Below are positions 9,968 through 53,870 of a DNA stretch of 64,000 bases, piece after piece. Position numbers and translations under genes: made by a program. Source of the stretch: Candidatus Daviesbacteria bacterium (GTDB taxonomy: Bacteria; Patescibacteriota; Microgenomatia; Daviesbacterales; UBA10151); contig JACPKL010000005.1 of the NCBI GenBank assembly GCA_016187035.1, forward strand, positions 199,150 to 263,149, in the 5' to 3' direction. Every line of letters starts with the position of its first letter. The stretch's first letter is position 1. A model generated the notes under the pieces. That model was not told the origin of the DNA, did not search any database, and worked only from the letters and a program-made list of their open reading frames with translations.

Positions 9968-10981
9968 ATGCGTGTAGGAATGGATATTTCACAACTTGCA
10001 CATAAGGGAGGAGTAGTTACTTATACATTGAATTTAGCACAGCAGCTTTCTAGAGTTGAAGATTTAGATATGGTTTACTTTTTTTCTTCCCTAAGAAAAA
10101 AAGCCCCTCTTAATATTGATGGGAATATCAAAAAATTTTATCTACCTTCTACGCTTTTTGAAATGCTTTTTAATAAATGGAGAAATATACCAATTGAGAG
10201 ATTTATTGGAAAAGTGGATATATTTCATTCTTCTGATTGGATTCAACCTCCGTCTAGGGCTAAAAAAGTCACTACTTATCATGATGTTATTCCTCTAAAA
10301 TACCCGCAATGGTCCCACCCAAAAATTGTTGAAGTTCATAAGCGAAGGTTGAAATTAGTTGAGGATGAAATTGACATGGTGATTGCTGTTTCAGAAACCA
10401 CAAAAAAAGACTTGCTTGAAGTTTCCAGGATACCTGAGAAAAAAATTACTGTTATTTATGAAGGATCTACAATATCTAATAGCGTTAGAATCCAGAGTGA
10501 GGCTGAACTACGAAGATTTAGGGAGAAGTATAAGCTACCGGAAAGGTATATCCTAGCTATAGGAGGAGTAGGGGAAAGAAAAAACTTAAAAAGGGTGAAA
10601 GATGCTTGCCGCGGCTATAATTTGGTGATTGCAGGTGTTACACTCCCTTGGTTGAATATAGAAGAATTAAAGCTGCTTTATGCTTCTGCTGAGGTTTTGC
10701 TTTATCCGTCACTTTATGAAGGATTTGGTTTGCCGATATTGGATGCTCAAGCTTATGGATGTCCTGTTGTTACTTCTAATGTTTCCGCTATGCCTGAGGT
10801 AGCTGGAAAAGGCGCTATATTGGTAAACCCTTATTCAATTGAGGATATAATTAGAGGGATTAGGCAAGTTAAGGAAATTAGGGAAGAGGTTATACAAAAG
10901 GGTTTTGAGAATGTAAAAAGATTTTCCTGGGAAAAGTGTGCAAAAGAAACTGTAGAGGTGTACGGGAGGCTGATGAGATGA
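9968..10981 (+). CDS. GT4-family glycosyltransferase
   Basis: YEGFGLPILDAQAYGCPVVTSNVSAMPEVAG and [10 protein letters not shown]. Its C-terminal third is a close paralog of 50588..51754. Confidence 0.85.
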   Translation: MRVGMDISQLAHKGGVVTYTLNLAQQLSRVEDLDMVYFFSSLRKKAPLNIDGNIKKFYLPSTLFEMLFNKWRNIPIERFIGKVDIFHSSDWIQPPSRAKKVTTYHDVIPLKYPQWSHPKIVEVHKRRLKLVEDEIDMVIAVSETTKKDLLEVSRIPEKKITVIYEGSTISNSVRIQSEAELRRFREKYKLPERYILAIGGVGERKNLKRVKDACRGYNLVIAGVTLPWLNIEELKLLYASAEVLLYPSLYEGFGLPILDAQAYGCPVVTSNVSAMPEVAGKGAILVNPYSIEDIIRGIRQVKEIREEVIQKGFENVKRFSWEKCAKETVEVYGRLMR

Positions 10982-12108
10982 ATATCTGGATAGATGGGTA
11001 TGAAGCAAATGAATCCCAAAGACTTGGGTCCTCACAGGTAGCTTTTGAGCTGATAAAACATTTTGAAAAAATAGATAAGCAAAATACATATACAGTTTTG
11101 TTGCCGGGTAAACCTTTATATGATTTGCCTAAAGAAAGGAATGGATGGAGATATAAAGTTCTAAAACCTAAAAGACTTTGGACTAAGGTTGCTTTACCTT
11201 TGTCGTTGTATACTGCGAAACTGAAACCTCAAGTATTTTTTTCACCAACACATTATATTCCAAGCTTTTCACCCTCATCAGTTAAAAGAATAGTAACTAT
11301 ATTTGACTTATCTTTCCTGTATTTTCCAAAGATGTTTAATAAAAAAGATCTTTGGCAACTGATTAGTTGGACTAAATACTCCGCTTTGAATGCAGATCAT
11401 ATTATTACGATTTCTAATTTTTCTAAAAAAGATATTTGTGAGCAATACAAAGTTGATAAAAGTAGGGTTACAGTAGCTTATCCTGGATATGATAGAGATA
11501 AGTTCAAGGTTCAAGGTTCAAAGTTCAAAGTTGATGAAACTAAAAATAAATATAATTTAGGAGATAACTATAACTACATTATATATATAGGGACCATACA
11601 GCCTAGGAAAAATCTAATCAGATTAATTGAGGCAGTTTCACGGATAGATAATTTAGCTTTGGTAATTGTTGGTAAAACTTCAGGTGAAGGCAGAGGGGGT
11701 TGGATGTATGAAGAGACTTTATCAGCACCACAAGAATACGCAGTAGCAGATAGAGTTAAATTTTTGGGCTTTGTACCTACAGAAGATTTACTTTATTTAC
11801 TCTCTGGCGCTAAAGCGTATATTTTACCGTCACTTTGGGAGGGTTTTGGCATTCCGGTTTTAGAAGCGATGGCTTGTGGAGTGCCAGTAATAGTATCCAA
11901 TGTATCATCATTACCTGAAGTAGTTGGCAAAGCAGGACTTTTGATTGACCCTTATTCTGTTTCGCAGATAGAACAGGCAATTAGGACTGTTGTCACTGAT
12001 AAAAAATTGCAAAGTAAATATTCAAAAGCAGCTTTAGAACAAGTAAAGAAGTTTTCCTGGGAAAAAACAGCCAAGGCTGTTTTAAAAGTATTTGAAAACT
12101 TTGCTTAG
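10978..12108 (+). CDS. GT4-family glycosyltransferase
   Basis: WEGFGIPVLEAMACGVPVIVSNVSSLPEVVG and KFSWEKTAKA. The ATG at 10978 has GGGAGG 11 nt upstream and overlaps the upstream stop (ATGA). The track start at 10936 was rejected. Confidence 0.85.
   Translation: MNIWIDGYEANESQRLGSSQVAFELIKHFEKIDKQNTYTVLLPGKPLYDLPKERNGWRYKVLKPKRLWTKVALPLSLYTAKLKPQVFFSPTHYIPSFSPSSVKRIVTIFDLSFLYFPKMFNKKDLWQLISWTKYSALNADHIITISNFSKKDICEQYKVDKSRVTVAYPGYDRDKFKVQGSKFKVDETKNKYNLGDNYNYIIYIGTIQPRKNLIRLIEAVSRIDNLALVIVGKTSGEGRGGWMYEETLSAPQEYAVADRVKFLGFVPTEDLLYLLSGAKAYILPSLWEGFGIPVLEAMACGVPVIVSNVSSLPEVVGKAGLLIDPYSVSQIEQAIRTVVTDKKLQSKYSKAALEQVKKFSWEKTAKAVLKVFENFA
11504..11538 (+). repeat. Heptanucleotide tandem array TCAAGGT x2, TCAAAGT x2, TGATGAA inside a GT4 gene
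   Basis: Read directly. Encodes KFKVQGSKFKVDE. Confidence 0.9.
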
Positions 12109-12109
12109 T

Positions 12110-12146
12110 TTGGACTATTAGGACAACATATCCAAGGACCGTCCCC
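12110..12146 (+). repeat. Family-A repeat copy A1 (core AAGGACCGTCCCC at 12134-12146; left part diverged)
   Basis: Shares the invariant 11-mer AGGACCGTCCC. Intergenic, 45 nt upstream of the acetyltransferase ATG. Confidence 0.7.
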
Positions 12147-20361: not shown

Positions 20362-22227
20362 ATGGCACTTGTCAATTTGAATCAAATACTAAATAAAAAG
20401 ACTGTTAAACACAAAACTATAAATAGGTTAATAGTAGTTTTAGTTATCTTACTTATTTTTGTAGGTATTCCTTTGATTTTTATTCTTTGGGAAGCTAAAG
20501 ATATTATTAGTCACGGAAGAGGAATTGTTGCTTCATATAAGCAGCAGAATTTTGATAATTTGAAAAAAGAGGTTAGTTCTACAAAATGGGAATTACAAAA
20601 GACAAACATTGCTCTAGGTTTTCTTTTTTGGGTTAAAGCTATACCTATACTTGGGGGATATTATTCTGATGTAAAGGGGTTTGCAGGAGCTGGAGTAGAG
20701 GAGTTAGAAGCTATGGATAAATTACTATCCAGTCTTCAACCAAGTAAAGCAGAATTGGGATTTGATGGTTATCCAAAGAGCGGACCTGACAGAATTACCC
20801 AGGCAGTTAAAATTTTGGATAAATCTTTACCTAATATTGATAAGATTGAAGGTAATTTAAAAAAAGCAGCTGAGTTGGTTAAAAATATAGATACCAATAA
20901 ATACCCGCAAAAATTTAAGGGCAAAGATATCAGAGATAATTTAGAAACAGCTAAAAATTTTATTATGGGAGCTCAAGTTGCTGTTAAAGAAGGAAAAGAA
21001 GCGCTGACTATAGCACCTCAGGCTTTAGGTTTAACTTCACCTAGAACTTACCTTTTACTTTTCCAGAATGACAAGGAAATACGCCCTACCGGAGGGTTCA
21101 TGACAGCCTATGCTACGATAACTTTAAGCAGTGGCCAGGTTAACGCAACCACCTCAGATGATATCTACAGGCTAGATGAAAAATTATTAAACGTTTGTTT
21201 GACAAAAATATGCCCTCTGACTCCCCCGTCCCCTATTGTGAAATATTTGCCTGAGGTTACCGGTAAAGTAAGGTCTGCCTGGAGTATGAGAGATTCAAAT
21301 ATTTCACCGGATGTACCTACTTCTGCCAGGGAATTTGAAAGAATGTATCAGCTTTTGGGCCAGGGTTTACCATTTGATGGAATAATTTTTATAGATACAC
21401 AAGTAGTGGAGGAGTTAATTGAGGTAACAGGGCCAATAGATGTTTACGGAACAAAATACTCTCAAGAGATAGATAAAAGGTGTAATTGCCCTAATGTGAT
21501 TTATGAGCTTGAATCATATGCAGAAATTGCTGCTAAAGGAGAAAAGGATAGGAAAGCGATTTTAGGAGTGTTAATGCAGCAAATACTTGCAAGGTCTGTT
21601 GGGTCTGATGTAGAAAAGCTGCCTCAACTTATAGAAACAGTAGCCACTTTAGCTAACCATAAACATGTGATGTTTTTTATGCATGATACAAATACCCAAA
21701 AAGCTTTAGCTAACCTAAATTGGACAGGGGAAATTAAAAATACAGACACTGATTATTTACATATTAATGACTCTAATTTTGCCGGAGGTAAGTCTAATAT
21801 ATATGTTGAGCAAACAGTCACTCAGGAAATCAATACTCAAAAGGATGGGGTTAAGAAAAAGATTACCATTGAGTATAAAAATCCCCAGGCGTTTAATACC
21901 TGGTTAAATGGTATAAATCGGGATTATGTCAGATTCTATGTGCCAAAGGGAAGTAAATTGATTTTTTCCAAAGGATCAGAGGTGGAGGTAACTACCATTG
22001 AAGACTTGGGTAAAACAGTCTTTGAGGCATTTGTCCAGGTTAGGCCCACAAATTTGCGGAAGCTTGAGATAGAATACACGATCCCCTATCAGTTAGAAGG
22101 AGAATACAAATTATTAATTCAAAAACAACCAGGAGCTAAAGATTTCAAGTATAAAATTAAACTAAACGGTTCCCAAAAGGCAGACTTTAACTTAGACACT
22201 GACAAAGAATTTAAATTTGATATCTGA
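20362..22227 (+). CDS. DUF4012-like membrane-anchored protein
   Basis: N-terminal TM helix. The LLLFQNDKEIRPTGGFMTAYATITL segment matches my recollection of the DUF4012 signature (NxxE-R-x-TGG). The family is often next to polysaccharide loci. Assignment from memory only. Confidence 0.55.
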   Translation: MALVNLNQILNKKTVKHKTINRLIVVLVILLIFVGIPLIFILWEAKDIISHGRGIVASYKQQNFDNLKKEVSSTKWELQKTNIALGFLFWVKAIPILGGYYSDVKGFAGAGVEELEAMDKLLSSLQPSKAELGFDGYPKSGPDRITQAVKILDKSLPNIDKIEGNLKKAAELVKNIDTNKYPQKFKGKDIRDNLETAKNFIMGAQVAVKEGKEALTIAPQALGLTSPRTYLLLFQNDKEIRPTGGFMTAYATITLSSGQVNATTSDDIYRLDEKLLNVCLTKICPLTPPSPIVKYLPEVTGKVRSAWSMRDSNISPDVPTSAREFERMYQLLGQGLPFDGIIFIDTQVVEELIEVTGPIDVYGTKYSQEIDKRCNCPNVIYELESYAEIAAKGEKDRKAILGVLMQQILARSVGSDVEKLPQLIETVATLANHKHVMFFMHDTNTQKALANLNWTGEIKNTDTDYLHINDSNFAGGKSNIYVEQTVTQEINTQKDGVKKKITIEYKNPQAFNTWLNGINRDYVRFYVPKGSKLIFSKGSEVEVTTIEDLGKTVFEAFVQVRPTNLRKLEIEYTIPYQLEGEYKLLIQKQPGAKDFKYKIKLNGSQKADFNLDTDKEFKFDI

Positions 22228-22247
22228 CGGATAAAGAAGAGGCAAAA

Positions 22248-22300
22248 ATAAATTATGCTATATTTAGGTTGTTGTATCAATATTTCTTAGGACCGTCCCT
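22248..22300 (+). repeat. Family-A repeat copy A2 (..TATTTAGGTTGTTGTATCAATATTTCTTAGGACCGTCCCT)
   Basis: Aligns over about 50 nt with copies A4-A6. Intergenic between the DUF4012-like gene and recO. Confidence 0.8.
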
Positions 22301-22367
22301 AATGAAACATTAGTCAGTAACAGGAGAGTGCATAATCAGTTACTAGAAATAATTAAATCCATTCTAC

Positions 22368-29425: not shown

Positions 29426-29454
29426 ATTCTACTAAGGGTTTTTATATTTGTCAA
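29426..29454 (-). promoter_or_regulatory. Sigma70-like promoter for the ORFan (TTGACA-17-TAGAAT on the minus strand)
   Basis: The minus strand reads TTGACAaatataaaaacccttagTAGAAT. The -10 ends 13 nt before the ATG at 29412. Lies immediately outside repeat copy A3. Confidence 0.45.
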
Positions 29455-29466
29455 GGTTTGTCGTTT

Positions 29467-29518
29467 GGGGACGGTCCTAGAATTTACAGTTATAACAATC
29501 TAAATAAGTCAAACTTTT
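29467..29518 (-). repeat. Family-A repeat copy A3 (inverted; overlaps the RAYT stop codon)
   Basis: The minus strand reads TTATTTAGATTGTTATAACTGTAAATTCTAGGACCGTCCCC. Confidence 0.8.
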
Positions 29519-30159
29519 CTTCTTCTCAAATATTTTCTTTTAGAAAGGGTATTAAATTTATTTGATCCAATAGTCGCTTCTTCCTTTTCAAATAATTCGT
29601 CTATTTCAGCAAAATCTTTAGAAATTCCATCATAAATAAATTTTTCATATTCCTTTCTTGAATTATGTGAATCCCCAATCAGTCTTACAATATCTCTATC
29701 TAGTATTTTGAAAGCCTCCATTCCTATTGCTTCCTTAAAACTACTGTATAAATAATCCCTTGGATCTGAAACTAGTCCTGCTTTCACTGGATTTAAATAG
29801 ATATATTGAGATAGTTTTAGAAAGTATGAATCATTCTCAATTAATATGCTTTTAAATCTATTTTGGAAAACTGGCCCAAAGTGTTGAAAAGTTTTATTAA
29901 AATACATTGAATAACTAGTTGTCAGCGAAGACATTATTTTGGATATTGGAATTTTCCTGGTTTGAATAGAGATATGAAAGTGATTAGGCATTAAACAGAA
30001 AGCATAGATAGAATGATCGTATTTATCTTTTAATTGTAGAAGCTTTCTTAGAAAAAAGTTATAATCAGCTTCAGAGAGAAAAATTGGTTGTTTATTAATC
30101 CCTCTGTTAAATACATGATAAAAAGCGTTTTGGAAAGTAAATCTTGGGCCTCTAGGCAT
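29509..30159 (-). CDS. REP-associated tyrosine transposase-like protein (RAYT / IS200-like Y1 HUH transposase)
   Basis: FYHVFNRG, an HUH triad in CLMPNHFHISI, and the catalytic-Tyr helix QYIYLNPVKAGL (PF01797-type). The track start at 30204 (TTG) was trimmed to the ATG at 30159 (MPRGPRF...). Confidence 0.85.
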   Translation of the reverse strand: MPRGPRFTFQNAFYHVFNRGINKQPIFLSEADYNFFLRKLLQLKDKYDHSIYAFCLMPNHFHISIQTRKIPISKIMSSLTTSYSMYFNKTFQHFGPVFQNRFKSILIENDSYFLKLSQYIYLNPVKAGLVSDPRDYLYSSFKEAIGMEAFKILDRDIVRLIGDSHNSRKEYEKFIYDGISKDFAEIDELFEKEEATIGSNKFNTLSKRKYLRRRKV

Positions 30160-30215
30160 TAATAAAACTATGTCATTTCTAGGTTGTTCTGTCAAGCTTA
30201 TCAAGGACCGTCCCC
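30153..30215 (+). repeat. Family-A repeat copy A4; left member of the 63-bp direct repeat framing murE
   Basis: TAGGCATTAATAAAACTATGTCATTTCTAGGTTGTTCTGTCAAGCTTATCAAGGACCGTCCCC. By manual alignment, 61/63 identical to 31372-31434. Confidence 0.9.
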
Positions 30216-31381
30216 TTCTTCAGAAGTTAAAAAACATTTTTTATCATTTGCCGCAGGCTTTTATAGCTAATATTTTATATGGGTTTCCGTCAAATGGTAT
30301 GACGATTGTTGGAGTAACTGGGACTGATGGAAAAACAACTACTACTAATTTGATTTATAAAATCCTTAAAGATTCAGGCAAAAAGGTCTCAATGATTTCT
30401 ACTATTAATGCTGTGATAGGGGGGAAAACCTATGACACCGGTTTTCATGTAACTAGTCCAGATCCTTTTACGTTGCAAAAATTTATTAGAAATGCAAAAA
30501 ATTCAGGGGATAATTACTTAGCTTTGGAAGTCACCTCACATGCTTTAGACCAATACAGATTCTGGGGGATTAATTTTACAGTTGGGGTAATCACCAATAT
30601 AACTCATGAACATTTAGATTACCATCAGACTTTTGAAAATTATTTTAAGACTAAATTAAAGCTTATTAAATATGCTAAGTGGAGGGTTGTTAATGAAAAT
30701 CTGAAGGGAGATTGGGGTGATAGGGGAAGTAAGGGTAATGGGGTAGTCACATTTGGTAGCAGTGGCCCCAAGCTTAATTTAAAACTAATAGGTGATTATA
30801 ATCTTGAAAATGCTTATGCCTCTTTGGCTGTAGCTAAGGTTTTAGGAATTGATGCAGAAAGCGCCCAAAGATCTGTGGAAGGGTTTACAGGTATTCCTGG
30901 AAGAATGGAAGAAGTAAAAAACAATAGGGGTATTAAAATATTTGTTGATTTTGCTCATACTCCGAATGCCTTAAAGCAAGCTCTTAAAGCTTTACGTCCC
31001 AAGGCATACGGAAGATTGATTGTTGTTTTTGGGGCTGCTTCAGAAAGAGATATTTTGAAACGTCCCATTATGGGAGAAATTGCTGCAAAAGAAGCTGATA
31101 TGACTATACTGACTGATGAAGATCCAAGGCACGAAGATAGAAATAAAATCTTAAATGAAATTGCCGGAGGAGCTATGATGGCGGGAGCAAAAGATGGGAT
31201 AAATCTATTTAAGGAACCGGATAGAGCTAAAGCTATTAAGTTGGCTATAACTTTAGCCAAAAAAGGAGATATAATAGGAATTTTTGGAAAAGGTCACGAA
31301 AAATCAATTAATTATAGGGGAGTGGAAACTCCGTGGTCAGATTTTGAGGCAGTAAAGAAAGCTTTAACTAATAGGCATTAA
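30170..31381 (+). CDS. murE: UDP-N-acetylmuramoyl-L-alanyl-D-glutamate--(2,6-diaminopimelate or L-lysine) ligase MurE (short form)
   Basis: GVTGTDGKTTTT P-loop, HEHLDYHQTFENYF and VDFAHTPNALKQAL. EDPR sits at the DNPR position. The ATG at 30170 lies inside repeat A4; an alternative ATG at 30299 sits just before the P-loop. Confidence 0.85.
   Translation: MSFLGCSVKLIKDRPLLQKLKNIFYHLPQAFIANILYGFPSNGMTIVGVTGTDGKTTTTNLIYKILKDSGKKVSMISTINAVIGGKTYDTGFHVTSPDPFTLQKFIRNAKNSGDNYLALEVTSHALDQYRFWGINFTVGVITNITHEHLDYHQTFENYFKTKLKLIKYAKWRVVNENLKGDWGDRGSKGNGVVTFGSSGPKLNLKLIGDYNLENAYASLAVAKVLGIDAESAQRSVEGFTGIPGRMEEVKNNRGIKIFVDFAHTPNALKQALKALRPKAYGRLIVVFGAASERDILKRPIMGEIAAKEADMTILTDEDPRHEDRNKILNEIAGGAMMAGAKDGINLFKEPDRAKAIKLAITLAKKGDIIGIFGKGHEKSINYRGVETPWSDFEAVKKALTNRH
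30706..30743 (+). repeat. In-CDS G-tract module, canonical G4 motif (GGGagattGGGGtgataGGGGaagtaaGGGtaatGGGG)
   Basis: Five G3-4 runs starting at 30706, 30714, 30723, 30733 and 30740. Encodes KGDWGDRGSKGNG in murE. Confidence 0.85.
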
Positions 31382-31434
31382 TGAAACTATGTCATTTCTA
31401 GATTGTTCTGTCAAGCTTATCAAGGACCGTCCCC
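31372..31434 (+). repeat. Family-A repeat copy A5; right member of the 63-bp direct repeat framing murE
   Basis: TAGGCATTAATGAAACTATGTCATTTCTAGATTGTTCTGTCAAGCTTATCAAGGACCGTCCCC. Contains the murE stop codon. Confidence 0.9.
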
Positions 31435-31475
31435 ATGGATTATGGATGGATCCATAGAACATGGAAAGGCTTTAG

Positions 31476-32060
31476 ATGGATAGCAAGTACAAATTAATAA
31501 TAGATTCTTTTGGAGTTGAAAGATTTAAATTTAATGAACCTTTAAAAAATTTTACAGTATTGCAAGTTGGAGGGCCAGCGGAACTTTTTTTTGTGGCTTT
31601 TACTATTTCGGAACTGGTTAAGATAATAAAAATGTGCAGGCAATTAAAGTTAAACTTTTTTTTATTTGGGACTGGTTCTAAATTCTGTATGTCTGACTTG
31701 GGTTATTCTGGGCTAGTAATTAAAAACAGAACCAAAAATATCCAGACAATCTCTATTAAAGGTAAGGTAACTAAATTTGGAATTGGGGTTGAAGAAGCAA
31801 TTATAGAGGTTGATTCAGGAGTTAGCATAAATAAGTTTTGTGAGTATCTTCAGTCTCAAAATTTAGAGCTAGATCTTCTTAAAGATATTCCGGGAAGCAT
31901 TGGCGGCAATCTTTTTTTAAATAGATTTTTGCAAACAAAGGTCAAAAGTATTAAAGTATTAGATCAAATGTCTGAAATTGAGGATGTTTCGGTTGGTGAT
32001 TTGAAACTAGGAAAGATGATAATTTTATCAGCAGTGTTTAGGATTAAAGCCAAAAGTTAA
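31476..32060 (+). CDS. murB: MurB-like protein, FAD-binding N-terminal portion only (truncated UDP-N-acetylenolpyruvoylglucosamine reductase)
   Basis: LKNFTVLQVGGPAELFF, FLFGTGSKF and IPGSIGGNLFLN align to the MurB FAD-binding domain. The ORF ends at 194 aa, with murA starting 3 nt later, so the C-terminal substrate-binding domain is absent. Confidence 0.6.
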   Translation: MDSKYKLIIDSFGVERFKFNEPLKNFTVLQVGGPAELFFVAFTISELVKIIKMCRQLKLNFFLFGTGSKFCMSDLGYSGLVIKNRTKNIQTISIKGKVTKFGIGVEEAIIEVDSGVSINKFCEYLQSQNLELDLLKDIPGSIGGNLFLNRFLQTKVKSIKVLDQMSEIEDVSVGDLKLGKMIILSAVFRIKAKS

Positions 32061-32062
32061 TC

Positions 32063-33331
32063 ATGCAATACATAATTAAAGGTGGTAATAAACTAGAAGG
32101 TAAAATCCATATATCTGGAAATAAAAATGCGGTTTTCCCCTGTGTGGCAGCTGCACTTTTAACTGATGAAGAAGTGGTATTAGAAAACATCTCTCAATTA
32201 AAAGATACTGAAGTATTAATTCAAATACTCAAAAAGTTAGGTGTGTCTATACAAAAGTCAGGGTCAAGATTAATTATTAAAGCATCCAGTATCCGTCACT
32301 ACACTCTTCCTGATAAATTAATGACAAAACTTCGTGGATCAATAGTTTTGGTAGGAAGTATTTTAAGCAGGGTAGGCAAAGCAGTTTTTTGGCACCCAGG
32401 AGGGGATATTATTGGAAGAAGAAGTATTGAAACTCATTTAGAGGGATTTAAGGCTTTGGGTGCCAGTATAAAAAGAAACAATTTGAAATATGTTGTTACC
32501 TTAGAAAAGAAAGATAGAAGTAAGATTTTTGATATCTTTTTTAAAGAGGCTTCAGTTACTGCAACAGAAAACTTAATTCTAGCATCAGTGTTAGGAAAAC
32601 AAAAAGTAATACTTAAAAATTGTGCTAAGGAGCCTCATGTTTTGGATTTATGCAGAATGCTTACCCAAATGGGGGCTCAAATTACAGGAATAGGAACAGA
32701 TAGATTGGAAATTAGTGGAGTTGATAAACTGTTTGGAACCAAATTTAGGATTGGAATAGACTTTATTGAAGTCGGTACTTATATGATAGCTGCTGTTATA
32801 ACGCAGGGAAAAATTACAATTGAAGGTATAGATGCTTCAGACTTAAGATCAATATTTATTCATTTAAAAGAATTTGGAATTCAGATAGAGCAAAAGAATG
32901 ATAGTATTATAGTTTGGGCAGATAGATTAAAATCTCCTGCTAAAATAACAACAAATATTTGGCCTGGTTTTCCCACAGACTTAATGAGTGTAGCTATGGT
33001 TTTAGCAACCCAATCCAAGGGGGTTATTTTATGTCATGATTGGATGTATGAATCAAGAATGTTTTTTGTAGATAAACTTATATCAATGGGTGCAAAAATA
33101 GTTTTAGCTGATCCTCACCGAGTGTTAGTATCGGGGCCCACCAAACTTAGGGGAAGATCTTTGGAAACTCCAGATATTAGAGCAGGAATGGCTTTGGTTT
33201 TGGCTGGATTAGTAGCGAAAGGTAAGAGTAAGATAAATCAGTCAGAGCTAATTGAAAGAGGATATGAAGATGTAGTTGGGAAGTTAAGAAGTTTAGGCGC
33301 AGAAATTGAAAGAATTGATGAGAAGAGGTAA
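32063..33331 (+). CDS. murA: UDP-N-acetylglucosamine 1-carboxyvinyltransferase MurA (Asp at the Cys115-equivalent position)
   Basis: GNKNAVFPCVAAALLT, LRGSIVLVGSILSRVG..PGGDIIGRRSIETH and PGFPTDLMS. Full-length, 422 aa. Confidence 0.92.
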   Translation: MQYIIKGGNKLEGKIHISGNKNAVFPCVAAALLTDEEVVLENISQLKDTEVLIQILKKLGVSIQKSGSRLIIKASSIRHYTLPDKLMTKLRGSIVLVGSILSRVGKAVFWHPGGDIIGRRSIETHLEGFKALGASIKRNNLKYVVTLEKKDRSKIFDIFFKEASVTATENLILASVLGKQKVILKNCAKEPHVLDLCRMLTQMGAQITGIGTDRLEISGVDKLFGTKFRIGIDFIEVGTYMIAAVITQGKITIEGIDASDLRSIFIHLKEFGIQIEQKNDSIIVWADRLKSPAKITTNIWPGFPTDLMSVAMVLATQSKGVILCHDWMYESRMFFVDKLISMGAKIVLADPHRVLVSGPTKLRGRSLETPDIRAGMALVLAGLVAKGKSKINQSELIERGYEDVVGKLRSLGAEIERIDEKR

Positions 33332-33338
33332 CGCGATA

Positions 33339-34451
33339 ATGGGTTTTTTGGCTAAGCAATATGCCAAATTATATCCAGCAAACTATTTTATTGGTATAAC
33401 TGGTTCAGTTGGTAAGACTGTATGTGTGCAGTCTGCAAAAACAATTTTATCTCAGAAATTCCAGATTTTGTCTACGGAATTTGATTTAAATTCAGATTTA
33501 GATATTCCAAAAACTATTTTAAAATTAAACCCTACACTTAAAAAAGTAATTTTGGAAATGGGTATTGAAAATAAAGGAGAGATGGATTTTTATCTTTCTC
33601 TTATCCACCCCAAAACTGTTGTTTTTACTAAAATTGCATACGACCATAGTGAAAGCCTAGGAGAATTAGATGATATTATTATGGAAAAAGGGAAGCTGAT
33701 TAAACAGCTGGATGAGAAAGGTTTAGCAATTCTTAATTTTGATGATTCAAGTTGCAAAAAATTAGCAAAAGATTGTAAAGGTTCTGTACTTTATTACGGA
33801 ACTGACCCAAATAATTGCTCTATTTGGGCAGGGAATATTCAAATAGAAGATTTTAAGACAACTTTTGAATTAAATTTAGGGGTTGAAAGAGTGAAAGTTA
33901 ACTTTCCATATTGTGGTTTGCATTTAGTTTATCCTGCTATGGCAGCAGCTGCTTTAGGAGTAATAAATAATATACCATTGACAAAAATTAAGCTAGCTTT
34001 AGAAGCTGTCAAACCTTTAGAACACTTAATGCAGGTGGTAGCTGGACCTAATGGTTCTGTTGTATTGGATGATACTATCAATTCTTCATCAGTTGCTTTA
34101 GATTCAGCAATAGATACTTTACAGCAAATTAATGCTAGAAGAAGAGTATTGGTGTTGGGGGAAATGAGGAATTTAGGGAAATACTCAGATACTATACATC
34201 GTCAAATTGCTCAAAAGATTTTTAAAGAGAAAATAGATTTTGTATTTCTAGGACAGGGAAATACAGAAATTATAGCCGCTGAATTAAAGAGTTTAGGTTT
34301 TTGGGAAGAGAGAGTAGAAAATAACTTACAAAATTCACAAATTGTGTCAAGACTTTTAAATTTGCTTAGAAAAGGCGATTTAGTTTTAATAAAAGGCGCT
34401 TATTCTGCTAGATTAGATGAAATAGTGAAAAGAATTTCTAAGAAAACTTAA
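33339..34451 (+). CDS. murF: Mur ligase, most likely MurF (UDP-MurNAc-tripeptide--D-Ala-D-Ala ligase), short form
   Basis: IGITGSVGKTVCV P-loop, LEMGIENKGEMDF and VFTKIAYDHSESLG. Position before mraY. The ATG at 33339 has GAGGT upstream; the track start at 33306 overlaps murA. Confidence 0.7.
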   Translation: MGFLAKQYAKLYPANYFIGITGSVGKTVCVQSAKTILSQKFQILSTEFDLNSDLDIPKTILKLNPTLKKVILEMGIENKGEMDFYLSLIHPKTVVFTKIAYDHSESLGELDDIIMEKGKLIKQLDEKGLAILNFDDSSCKKLAKDCKGSVLYYGTDPNNCSIWAGNIQIEDFKTTFELNLGVERVKVNFPYCGLHLVYPAMAAAALGVINNIPLTKIKLALEAVKPLEHLMQVVAGPNGSVVLDDTINSSSVALDSAIDTLQQINARRRVLVLGEMRNLGKYSDTIHRQIAQKIFKEKIDFVFLGQGNTEIIAAELKSLGFWEERVENNLQNSQIVSRLLNLLRKGDLVLIKGAYSARLDEIVKRISKKT

Positions 34452-53648: not shown

Positions 53649-53720
53649 GCGGTGGTAGTTCAGTGGTAGAATGTCTCCTTCCCAAGGAGAAGGTCGGGGG
53701 TTCAAATCCCCTCCACCGCT
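53649..53720 (+). tRNA. tRNA-Gly (anticodon CCC)
   Basis: Acceptor GCGGTGG/CCACCGC, D arm GTTC-AGTGGTA-GAAT, anticodon stem TCTCC/GGAGA with loop TTCCCAA, T arm GGGGG-TTCAAAT-CCCCT, discriminator T. No CCA encoded. Confidence 0.9.
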
Positions 53721-53779
53721 CGTGGTAGAGCAATCCCTTCGTAAGGGAAAGATCGTGAGTTCAAATCCCACCGTTGGCT
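53718..53779 (+). pseudogene. 5'-truncated tRNA-Thr (anticodon CGT) fragment fused to the 3' end of tRNA-Gly
   Basis: A D arm (GCTC-GTGGTA-GAGC), an anticodon arm with loop TTCGTAA, a T arm (GTGAG-TTCAAAT-CCCAC, one A.C mismatch) and the 3' acceptor strand CGTTGGC are present. The complementary 5' acceptor strand (GCCAACG) and nt 8-9 are missing. Confidence 0.6.
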
Positions 53780-53785
53780 CACTTA

Positions 53786-53837
53786 AAAACTATGATTAAT
53801 TTAGGTTGTTGTACCAATCTATTTAAGGACCGTCCCC
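53786..53837 (+). repeat. Family-A repeat copy A6
   Basis: AAAAACTATGATTAATTTAGGTTGTTGTACCAATCTATTTAAGGACCGTCCCC, starting a few nt after the tRNA-Thr fragment. Confidence 0.85.
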
Positions 53838-53870
53838 AGATTAAGATTCGCAGATTCCGGCTCCCAGCTC

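Follow-up and report, generated by a model that had tools for sequence, protein, structure and literature searches.

Insertion sequences (IS) of the IS200/IS605 family carry subterminal hairpins, lack terminal inverted repeats and leave no duplications, while Rickettsia palindromic elements (RPE) and the Correia elements of Neisseria are small repeats that join genes or bring promoters, and IS-mediated adjacent deletions and IS-supplied gene termini are a general phenomenon. RAYT-type repeat systems have so far been studied mainly in Proteobacteria. The closest described kind to the system considered here is that of the REP/REPIN-RAYT systems, namely E. coli TnpA-REP with its REP and BIME sequences and the Pseudomonas REPINs (PMC3116915, PMC3337134; bioRxiv 10.1101/2021.07.10.451892), and our literature search found no paper linking RAYTs or REPINs with bacteria of the candidate phyla radiation (CPR). 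Here, we analyzed a 64,000-nucleotide stretch of a Candidatus Daviesbacteria genome (GCA_016187035.1, contig JACPKL010000005.1, positions 199,150 to 263,149; the window below), in which the cell wall gene murE lies between two direct copies of the end of a RAYT-type element. We consider it likely that RAYT-linked repeat units remodelled both termini of murE in place.

The initial annotation of this locus had described 63-bp same-orientation repeats with two mismatches around murE, and a repeat search of the window bears this out: the copies at 30153-30215 (unit A) and 31372-31434 (unit B) are identical at 61 of 63 positions (97%) and lie 1219 nt apart from start to start, and their 48-nt core has two matching sites only in the window, against 0.00 expected from shuffles. 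Its account of what the copies encode also holds. Unit A contains the start codon of the RAYT gene (CAT at 30157-30159, minus strand), and the orthologues in L056, L041 and other comparison loci, which are cited here by our own handles, likewise begin MPRGPRF. As both the sequence and the list of open reading frames (ORFs) show, unit A also contains the murE ATG at 30170 and the first 15 murE codons (MSFLGCSVKLIKDRP). Unit B encodes the final two murE codons and the stop (AGG CAT TAA) and contains a dead RAYT ATG-CCT start with no ORF behind it. The next in-frame murE ATG is indeed at 30299, but the true N-terminus, which had been called uncertain, can be settled as ATG 30170, the sole ATG, GTG or TTG in frame upstream of N22, H26 and P28, residues that are invariant or nearly so among 25 homologues. 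As the sequence now reads, this is the only usable murE start.

Repeat insertions that remodelled both termini were one of the explanations offered at the outset, and this explanation is supported by pre-insertion and intermediate states preserved in relatives. Five RAYT-free relatives (L001-L005) have the order mraZ-mraW-ftsL-ftsI-murE-murB-murA-murF-mraY, the same as the window, with an ftsI-murE gap of 13-22 nt that contains TGGTATAAT or GGTATAAT and with an 8-nt overlap of murE and murB (...GCTTTAAATGGATAA). Identical murE termini in repeat-free relatives had been named as a sign that the similarity is ancestral coding sequence; synteny is shared, and the termini differ. A RAYT element lies in the ftsI-murE gap, in the same orientation, in L162, L120, L121 and L122 and putatively in three more relatives. 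In L162, L120 and L122, about 33-47 nt lie between unit A and the native murE ATG (MLKRF..., MFIGV... and MKKFL..., respectively), a stretch that includes the ancestral spacer of ~33 nt (TGnTATAAT, in these three TGGTATA(T)AAT), and in L121 a 445-aa minus-strand gene stands between unit A and murE. The murE/murB junction is tight and without unit B in all four. To the right of unit A, L162 begins with GCTTCAACAGAATAG, which matches the end of the window's ftsI at 14 of 15 positions and thus appears to be a relic duplication of the target, with at least 15 nt duplicated by the original insertion.

The ftsI gene itself is 75-77% identical between the window and the relatives and has the same C-terminus, KIAPTE*. 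L120 and L122 retain a shorter GTTGTAG remnant of the ftsI end; the idea that the left unit of L120 supplies the ftsI stop was rejected, as the upstream ORF there is not ftsI. The ancestral spacer (L001 5979-6000, L004 5988-6000, L120 896-928, L122 2094-2127) holds a conserved (TG)GTATAAT about 8-10 nt before the murE ATG, which suggests that this clade transcribes murE from an internal promoter into an mRNA with no leader or almost none.

The last base of the window's unit A is 30215, and the codons immediately after it, CTT CTT CAG..., line up with codons ~9-11 in the relatives, so that about 58-60 nt, made up of the spacer and 8-9 murE codons, are missing, and the break falls exactly at the outer end of the element. 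The first 15 residues of the window's MurE are unique, the relatives starting M-K-K... 4-7 residues later in the alignment. Because the N-terminal ~10 residues vary among the relatives, their replacement was probably tolerated; the C-terminal tails after KKAL are variable among relatives as well.

At the other end of the gene, unit B sits exactly where murE and murB overlap in relatives, and it is absent from L001, L004, L120, L121, L122, L162 and every relative examined. It is flanked by GAAAGCTTTA and GAAAGGCTTTA. The murB start ATGGAT is repeated at 31435, 31442 and 31446, giving at the outer junction a flank reiteration (ATGGATT/ATGGAT) that is typical of the family, and GAAAGGCTTTAG (31462-31473), in which the murE 3' end recurs in degenerate form, now provides a Shine-Dalgarno-like GGAAAGG 6 nt before the murB ATG. 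Units A and B agree at 50 of 52 core positions, compared to 31-42 of 52 for other pairs within the window and between genomes, and have AAGCTTATCAAGG in common, a stretch missing from the unit A orthologues in L120 and L122; both facts indicate that B was copied from A in the window's own lineage. In another Daviesbacteria genome (L056/L137), a solo unit 2.1 kb past the RAYT 5' end is closest to the 5'-flank unit (45/52). Local copying of the 5' end thus has a parallel away from murE, but as a general rule, a solo copy near the RAYT 5' end was rejected, since only the window and L056/L137 show it.

These observations show the element as a long-standing resident of the tight ftsI-murE junction in a Daviesbacteria group, and a single ancestral insertion is suggested mainly by the homologous right flanks and by the RAYT similarity (79-83%) of the murE-adjacent copies. 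A deletion of about 58-60 nt from the outer end of unit A, in which the transposase may have played a role, would have removed the spacer and some 8-9 murE codons and fused the rest of murE in frame to the unit's ATG, an ATG complementary to the RAYT -10 box ACTATG. Unit A was also copied, presumably through RAYT catalysis, 1.2 kb downstream into the 8-nt murE/murB overlap, which parted the two genes; murE thereby acquired two codons and a TAA, and murB retains its own ATG behind ~41 nt of duplicated-target filler.

Several points weigh against this reconstruction. No near neighbour displays the steps directly, since MurE identity to the closest available relative is only about 61-67%; genomes that carry the RAYT and genomes that lack it are intermingled in a star-like MurE tree; and the murE fusion and the copying of B could have occurred in either order. 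The window's murE has lost the ancestral TATAAT spacer, promoter-like matches in the region are not significantly enriched (13 compared to 10.2 in shuffles), and the six family units of the window contain no significant hairpin (DNA-fold minimum free energy of -0.6 to -2.9 kcal/mol, z-scores of +0.3 to +1.7). Finally, the 27-mer across the B junction is absent from JGI metagenomes, exact look-ups of MurE, MurB and MurA gave no record, and no independent contig across B was retrieved.

Table 1. Coordinates, within the window, of the features at the murE locus and of the dispersed units
Feature	Start	End	Strand	Description
Solo unit E (divergent)	12094	12146	+	overlaps last codons and stop of ORF 10936-12108
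Solo unit D	22238	22300	+	intergenic, after ORF 20362-22227
ftsI	27059	28756	+	penicillin-binding protein, 565 aa; 1413-nt insertion block starts directly after its stop
ORF216	28762	29412	-	lineage-specific orphan between ftsI and RAYT element; GC 41% vs 34.6% for the window
3'-flank unit	29467	29519	-	left end of RAYT element; nhmmer E=6.7e-7; overlaps RAYT stop codon
RAYT-type Y1 (HUH) transposase	29509	30159	-	216 aa, start MPRGPRF
Unit A	30153	30215	+	5'-flank unit of RAYT, right end of element; orthologous units in L120, L122, L121, L162, L056
murE	30170	31381	+	403 aa; chimeric ORF, with codons 1-15, the final 2 codons and the stop contributed by repeat units
Left copy of duplicated target	31355	31365	+	GAAAGCTTTAA, native murE 3' end; relatives ...AAAGCTTTAAATGGATA...
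Unit B	31372	31434	+	solo copy of unit A (61/63) in former murE/murB overlap
Filler	31435	31475	+	ATGGAT copies, small hairpin, degenerate murE 3' end copy
murB	31476	32060	+	194 aa; N-terminus MDSKYKLI unchanged relative to relatives
Solo unit C	53781	53837	+	after tRNA-Gly and tRNA-like fragment

The transposase encoded beside murE matches Pfam PF01797 (E=4.7e-13) and the NCBIfam model REP_Tyr_transpos (76 bits, E=2.7e-21, just below the cut-off of 80), and its best sequence match among solved structures is 4ER8, E. coli TnpA-REP, with the HUH and tyrosine motifs aligned (NHFHIS/EHMHC and YIYLNPVK/YIYINPVK). It has 820 homologues, the best of them 83% identical. In the autonomous element, which is about 750 bp long, the RAYT gene lies between two units that face outwards; its two outer termini share the sequence ...AGGACCGTCCCC, and the 3'-flank unit, with its outer terminus GGGGACGGTCC at 29467, forms with unit A a terminal inverted repeat of 15 nt (14/15 matches). 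Inverted units also flank the RAYT in L056, L041, L120-122 and L162. The framing of murE by transposon ends had been judged unusual, and while the arrangement is as described, it is less exceptional than it seemed, since the units belong to a dispersed family and normally flank RAYT genes, abutting the coding sequence as inverted units in 31 of the 32 metagenomic loci in which both sides are present.

On its minus strand, unit A carries a promoter-like TTGACA-17-TGCATAGT (30195 to 30167) that ends 8 nt before the RAYT ATG, and the same site in unit B (31414 to 31386) is directed back into murE. The TTGACA and TGCATAGT boxes correspond to TGTCAA and AAACTATG, two blocks that are conserved among the 5'-flank units of other genomes, and from the consensus match and this conservation the 5'-flank unit probably carries the RAYT promoter.

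ORF216, on the other side of the element, has no Pfam or NCBIfam match and only itself as a database match; it has a promoter-like TTGACA-17-TAGAAT at 29454 to 29426 and is absent at the ftsI-murE position in L162, L121 and L120. Other genes stand beside the RAYT in L122 (51-1262, a 403-aa ORF with no Pfam match) and in L121 (3498-4835, the 445-aa gene, with faint helix-turn-helix matches). The ftsI-murE junction seems to accumulate novel genes.

With a profile built from four copies, nhmmer finds six family units in the window, at 12094-12146, 22245-22299, 29467-29519 (minus strand), 30160-30215, 31379-31434 and 53784-53837. All six end in the terminal 11-mer GGACCGTCCCC, of which the window has six occurrences where 0.14 would be expected. 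The units are 55-63 nt long, follow the consensus (AGGCAT.AAT.)AAACTATG....TTTAGRTTGTT....CAA........AGGACCGTCCCC, have GGAC-C-GTCC as their sole symmetry and reach the flank with the outer terminus ...CTAGGACCGTCCCC. On the fold results given above, we rejected a classical palindromic REP identity for the unit; a known RNA family was likewise rejected, as Rfam finds three tRNAs only in the window. Five of the six units stand at the 3' end of a gene and in the orientation of that gene; most genes of the window are on the plus strand, so this orientation bias is expected by chance.

Some solo units have surroundings of their own to report. Unit E overlaps the TAG stop of ORF 10936-12108 (...KVFENFA*) and may be a second case of a unit supplying the end of a gene. 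Directly after unit D, positions 22301-22317 read TAATGAAACATTAGTCA, similar to the unit's 5' portion (in copy B, TAATGAAACTATGTCA), and this may be a partial head-to-tail second copy. Unit C follows tRNA-Gly(CCC) (53649-53721) and then about 60 nt that resemble the D-arm-to-3'-end portion of another tRNA and are called by neither ARAGORN nor Rfam.

Beyond the window, a pattern scan of reference genomes followed by a profile filter found the full unit in Daviesbacteria, Curtissbacteria, Gottesmanbacteria, Levybacteria and other metagenome-assembled genomes (MAGs) of the Microgenomates group; the 16-base scanning pattern also gave many chance matches in unrelated phyla. Three architectures recur, namely RAYT genes with inverted units, RAYT-less inverted doublets and solo units. 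The doublets (L013, L028, L031, L060 and L100) have their units 28-42 nt apart and fold at -16 to -29 kcal/mol, mostly via the termini; there are none in the window. Neither murE nor ftsI is near the RAYT in any of 36 metagenomic loci (0/36), which means that the element occupies many different sites. A CPR-type unit and RAYT are also present in MAGs titled 'uncultured Gammaproteobacteria' (L012, L021, L027, L028, L031, L041, L060 and others). A cross-phylum spread to Gammaproteobacteria is unlikely: the RAYT on the 92,728-bp contig of L041 is named 'Candidatus Microgenomates' by NCBI, and the titles are probably mislabels.

The outer ends of the units, surveyed in L007-L162 and in the window, carry a recurrent mark. 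At 33 of 92 distinct outer ends (36%), the last 1-7 nt of the unit together with 5-8 nt of flank are tandemly duplicated, in some cases triplicated, the rates being 1 in 92 for inner boundaries and 0.5% for random positions (Fisher p ~1.5e-10); the periods are 8-17 nt with a mode of 12, and the cases in the window are at 31435-31451 and 53838-53849. No two sites have the same flank portion, so each case is an event of its own rather than an instance of a conserved motif. In 35 usable complete elements, no systematic direct duplication was found within 45 nt of the two ends, the scores being in the control range (three truncated Logan loci with a spurious self-match were left out of this test). 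To our knowledge, tandem junction duplication is not a known feature of Y1 transposition. We tentatively raise the possibility of an undescribed RAYT-type family of Microgenomates-group CPR bacteria with long, non-palindromic, promoter-bearing ends, whose activity would leave a tandem-duplication scar and sometimes longer target duplications. If this were true, it would suggest that a Y1 HUH enzyme processes the ends, for example through a nick inside the end with short strand-displacement synthesis and rejoining, or through staggered cleavage. Such processing would differ from the scar-free 'peel and paste' of IS200/IS605 and could also account for how a single end was copied from A to B and how an adjacent deletion rebuilt the murE start.

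Among the competing accounts, the one that survives best, and that we still regard as unlikely, is that the element inserted independently into murE codon ~8 without any later deletion, or that A and B have been kept alike by gene conversion and B is not recent. The MurE tree does not group the RAYT-bearing genomes, which makes recurrent site-specific insertion possible, and the left sides differ between genomes, with ORF216 in the window and other genes in L121 and L122. Against this stands the finding that the murE-adjacent RAYTs and unit A are mutually closest, unit A being nearly identical over TGTCATTTCTAGATTGTTCTGTCAAGCT, and that L162, L120 and L122 have homologous right flanks. On either history the outcome does not change, and neither does the conclusion that murE takes its start codon from the unit.

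It is rather improbable that the units are host-selected regulatory modules, acting as promoter, operator, terminator or in RNA stability, and that the bracketing of murE is adaptive. Each unit does have a promoter-like site, the units at gene 3' ends follow the orientation of the gene, and REP elements elsewhere have been co-opted for regulation (PMC3337134); however, the plus-strand majority of genes accounts for the orientation bias, no terminator-like structure or significant fold was found in the units, relatives manage without B, and a promoter in B would fire antisense into murE.

We give even less credit to the proposal, also made in the initial annotation, that unit B is the remnant of a second full RAYT element downstream of murE whose transposase was lost. 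Unit B includes the first 7 nt of the RAYT coding sequence (ATGCCTA, minus strand), like a truncated gene start, but an AGGCA-type stretch is retained at the same position in other solo units (unit D of the window, L035 and L028), and B is specifically A-like. A lost RAYT to the left of B would occupy murE's own sequence, whereas murE is conserved to within 2-3 codons of its end; moreover, murE and murB overlap by 8 nt in relatives, and no unit of the 3'-flank type lies nearby.

The initial annotation had further suggested that murE itself was captured or replaced as a cassette, by recombination or one-ended transposition between element ends, and this is a very remote prospect. Direct repeats of a transposon end do bracket the gene exactly, and a circle formed by recombination of A with B would hold murE and one unit. 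The gene order, however, is that of all relatives, relatives whose RAYT occupies this site possess murE but no copy B, and the nearest MurE homologues are all from Daviesbacteria. The window's murE is 66% and 64% identical to that of L001 and L004, respectively, which are 67% identical to each other, and its GC (0.361) and GC at third codon positions (0.265) are inside the range of its neighbours; on this divergence and base composition a foreign origin of the gene was rejected. The protein has the domains PF08245 (Mur_ligase_M) and PF02875 (Mur_ligase_C), reaches 378.8 bits with TIGR01085 (cut-off 257.3) and keeps the shared residue at all 97 columns that are invariant in 25 aligned sequences. 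Truncation of murE by the insertion was rejected as well, as its close homologues, all of 370-423 aa, are without an N-terminal domain throughout the clade. The gene is intact and of vertical descent, and presumably functional. The direct repeats around it arose as a side effect of repeat activity at the locus and do not delimit a mobile murE cassette.

Other Mur proteins of the clade are likewise short: the MurB proteins have just 193-199 aa with only FAD_binding_4 detected (window 31476-32060; L001-L005), and MurF (~370-381 aa; window 33306-34451) lacks the canonical N-terminal domain, as does MurE (~370-423 aa).

That one repeat copy or a join was made by the assembler is scarcely credible: repeats above k-mer length do break short-read graphs, and Logan contigs from three samples end inside unit A, but a genuine repeat that exceeds the k-mer is expected to cause such stops, two mismatches between A and B mark them as distinct loci, both flanks of each copy continue the gene order of the relatives, a misjoin would not create the target-derived duplications around B, and Logan contigs recover the stretch from ftsI through ORF216 and RAYT to unit A in at least three independent samples.

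The remodelling of both murE termini by resident units thus mostly deflates the bracketing of an essential gene, which becomes collateral change caused by RAYT-type repeats in a very compact operon. What it leaves is a mobile-element end adopted as the translation start of an essential cell wall gene while a second copy supplies the stop, in steps that can be reconstructed from the states preserved in relatives. The 63-nt direct repeats should also favour recombination that deletes or amplifies murE and interrupt short-read assembly here, and the signature at the unit ends is offered for testing the biochemistry of Y1 and RAYT enzymes.

As for IS-mediated adjacent deletions, the likeness is that the missing 58-60 nt start exactly at the outer terminus of the element; we know of no adjacent deletion documented for Y1 or RAYT enzymes, and in the window the link to the transposase is inferred. 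RPEs and Correia elements (the latter mentioned in bioRxiv 10.1101/2021.07.10.451892) resemble the units in being short mobile repeats that are tolerated in or at housekeeping genes, add codons and can carry outward promoters. In contrast to RPEs, which insert in frame inside ORFs, the repeat at murE replaces the start-bearing N-terminus and the stop, and the element and the enzyme are unrelated. With IS200/IS605 and their derivatives, which resemble miniature inverted-repeat elements (PATEs), the element shares PF01797, a length of about 750 bp, differentiated ends and transposase-less doublets, yet it differs in its 15-nt terminal inverted repeat, its want of a significant hairpin and its frequent junction duplications, and the protein scores as a RAYT and not as a TnpA of IS200 or IS608.

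The REPIN-RAYT systems come closest. The enzyme is a Y1 HUH protein of the RAYT clade, its gene lies between inverted cognate repeats, four solo copies within 64 kb stand at or beyond gene ends, doublets occur in other genomes, and the RAYT occupies the same extragenic space (ftsI-murE) in several relatives. On the other hand, REP units are short imperfect palindromes that form a hairpin, whereas the unit of the present family is non-palindromic and includes the RAYT start codon and a putative promoter, the arms of its doublets are differentiated into 5' and 3' types that pair well only at the termini, and the element is found at many sites across genomes in the manner of an IS (L056 and the 36 metagenomic loci elsewhere). 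Its outer ends carry tandem junction duplications, and its host is a CPR bacterium. In REPIN-RAYT systems the RAYT is single-copy and vertically inherited, the inverted doublet with its long hairpin is the replicating unit, and singlets are remnants; copy B looks like the recent copying of a singlet. Taken together, these comparisons indicate that RAYT-type repeat systems exist in the reduced genomes of CPR bacteria, in an atypical form with non-palindromic units and junction duplications.

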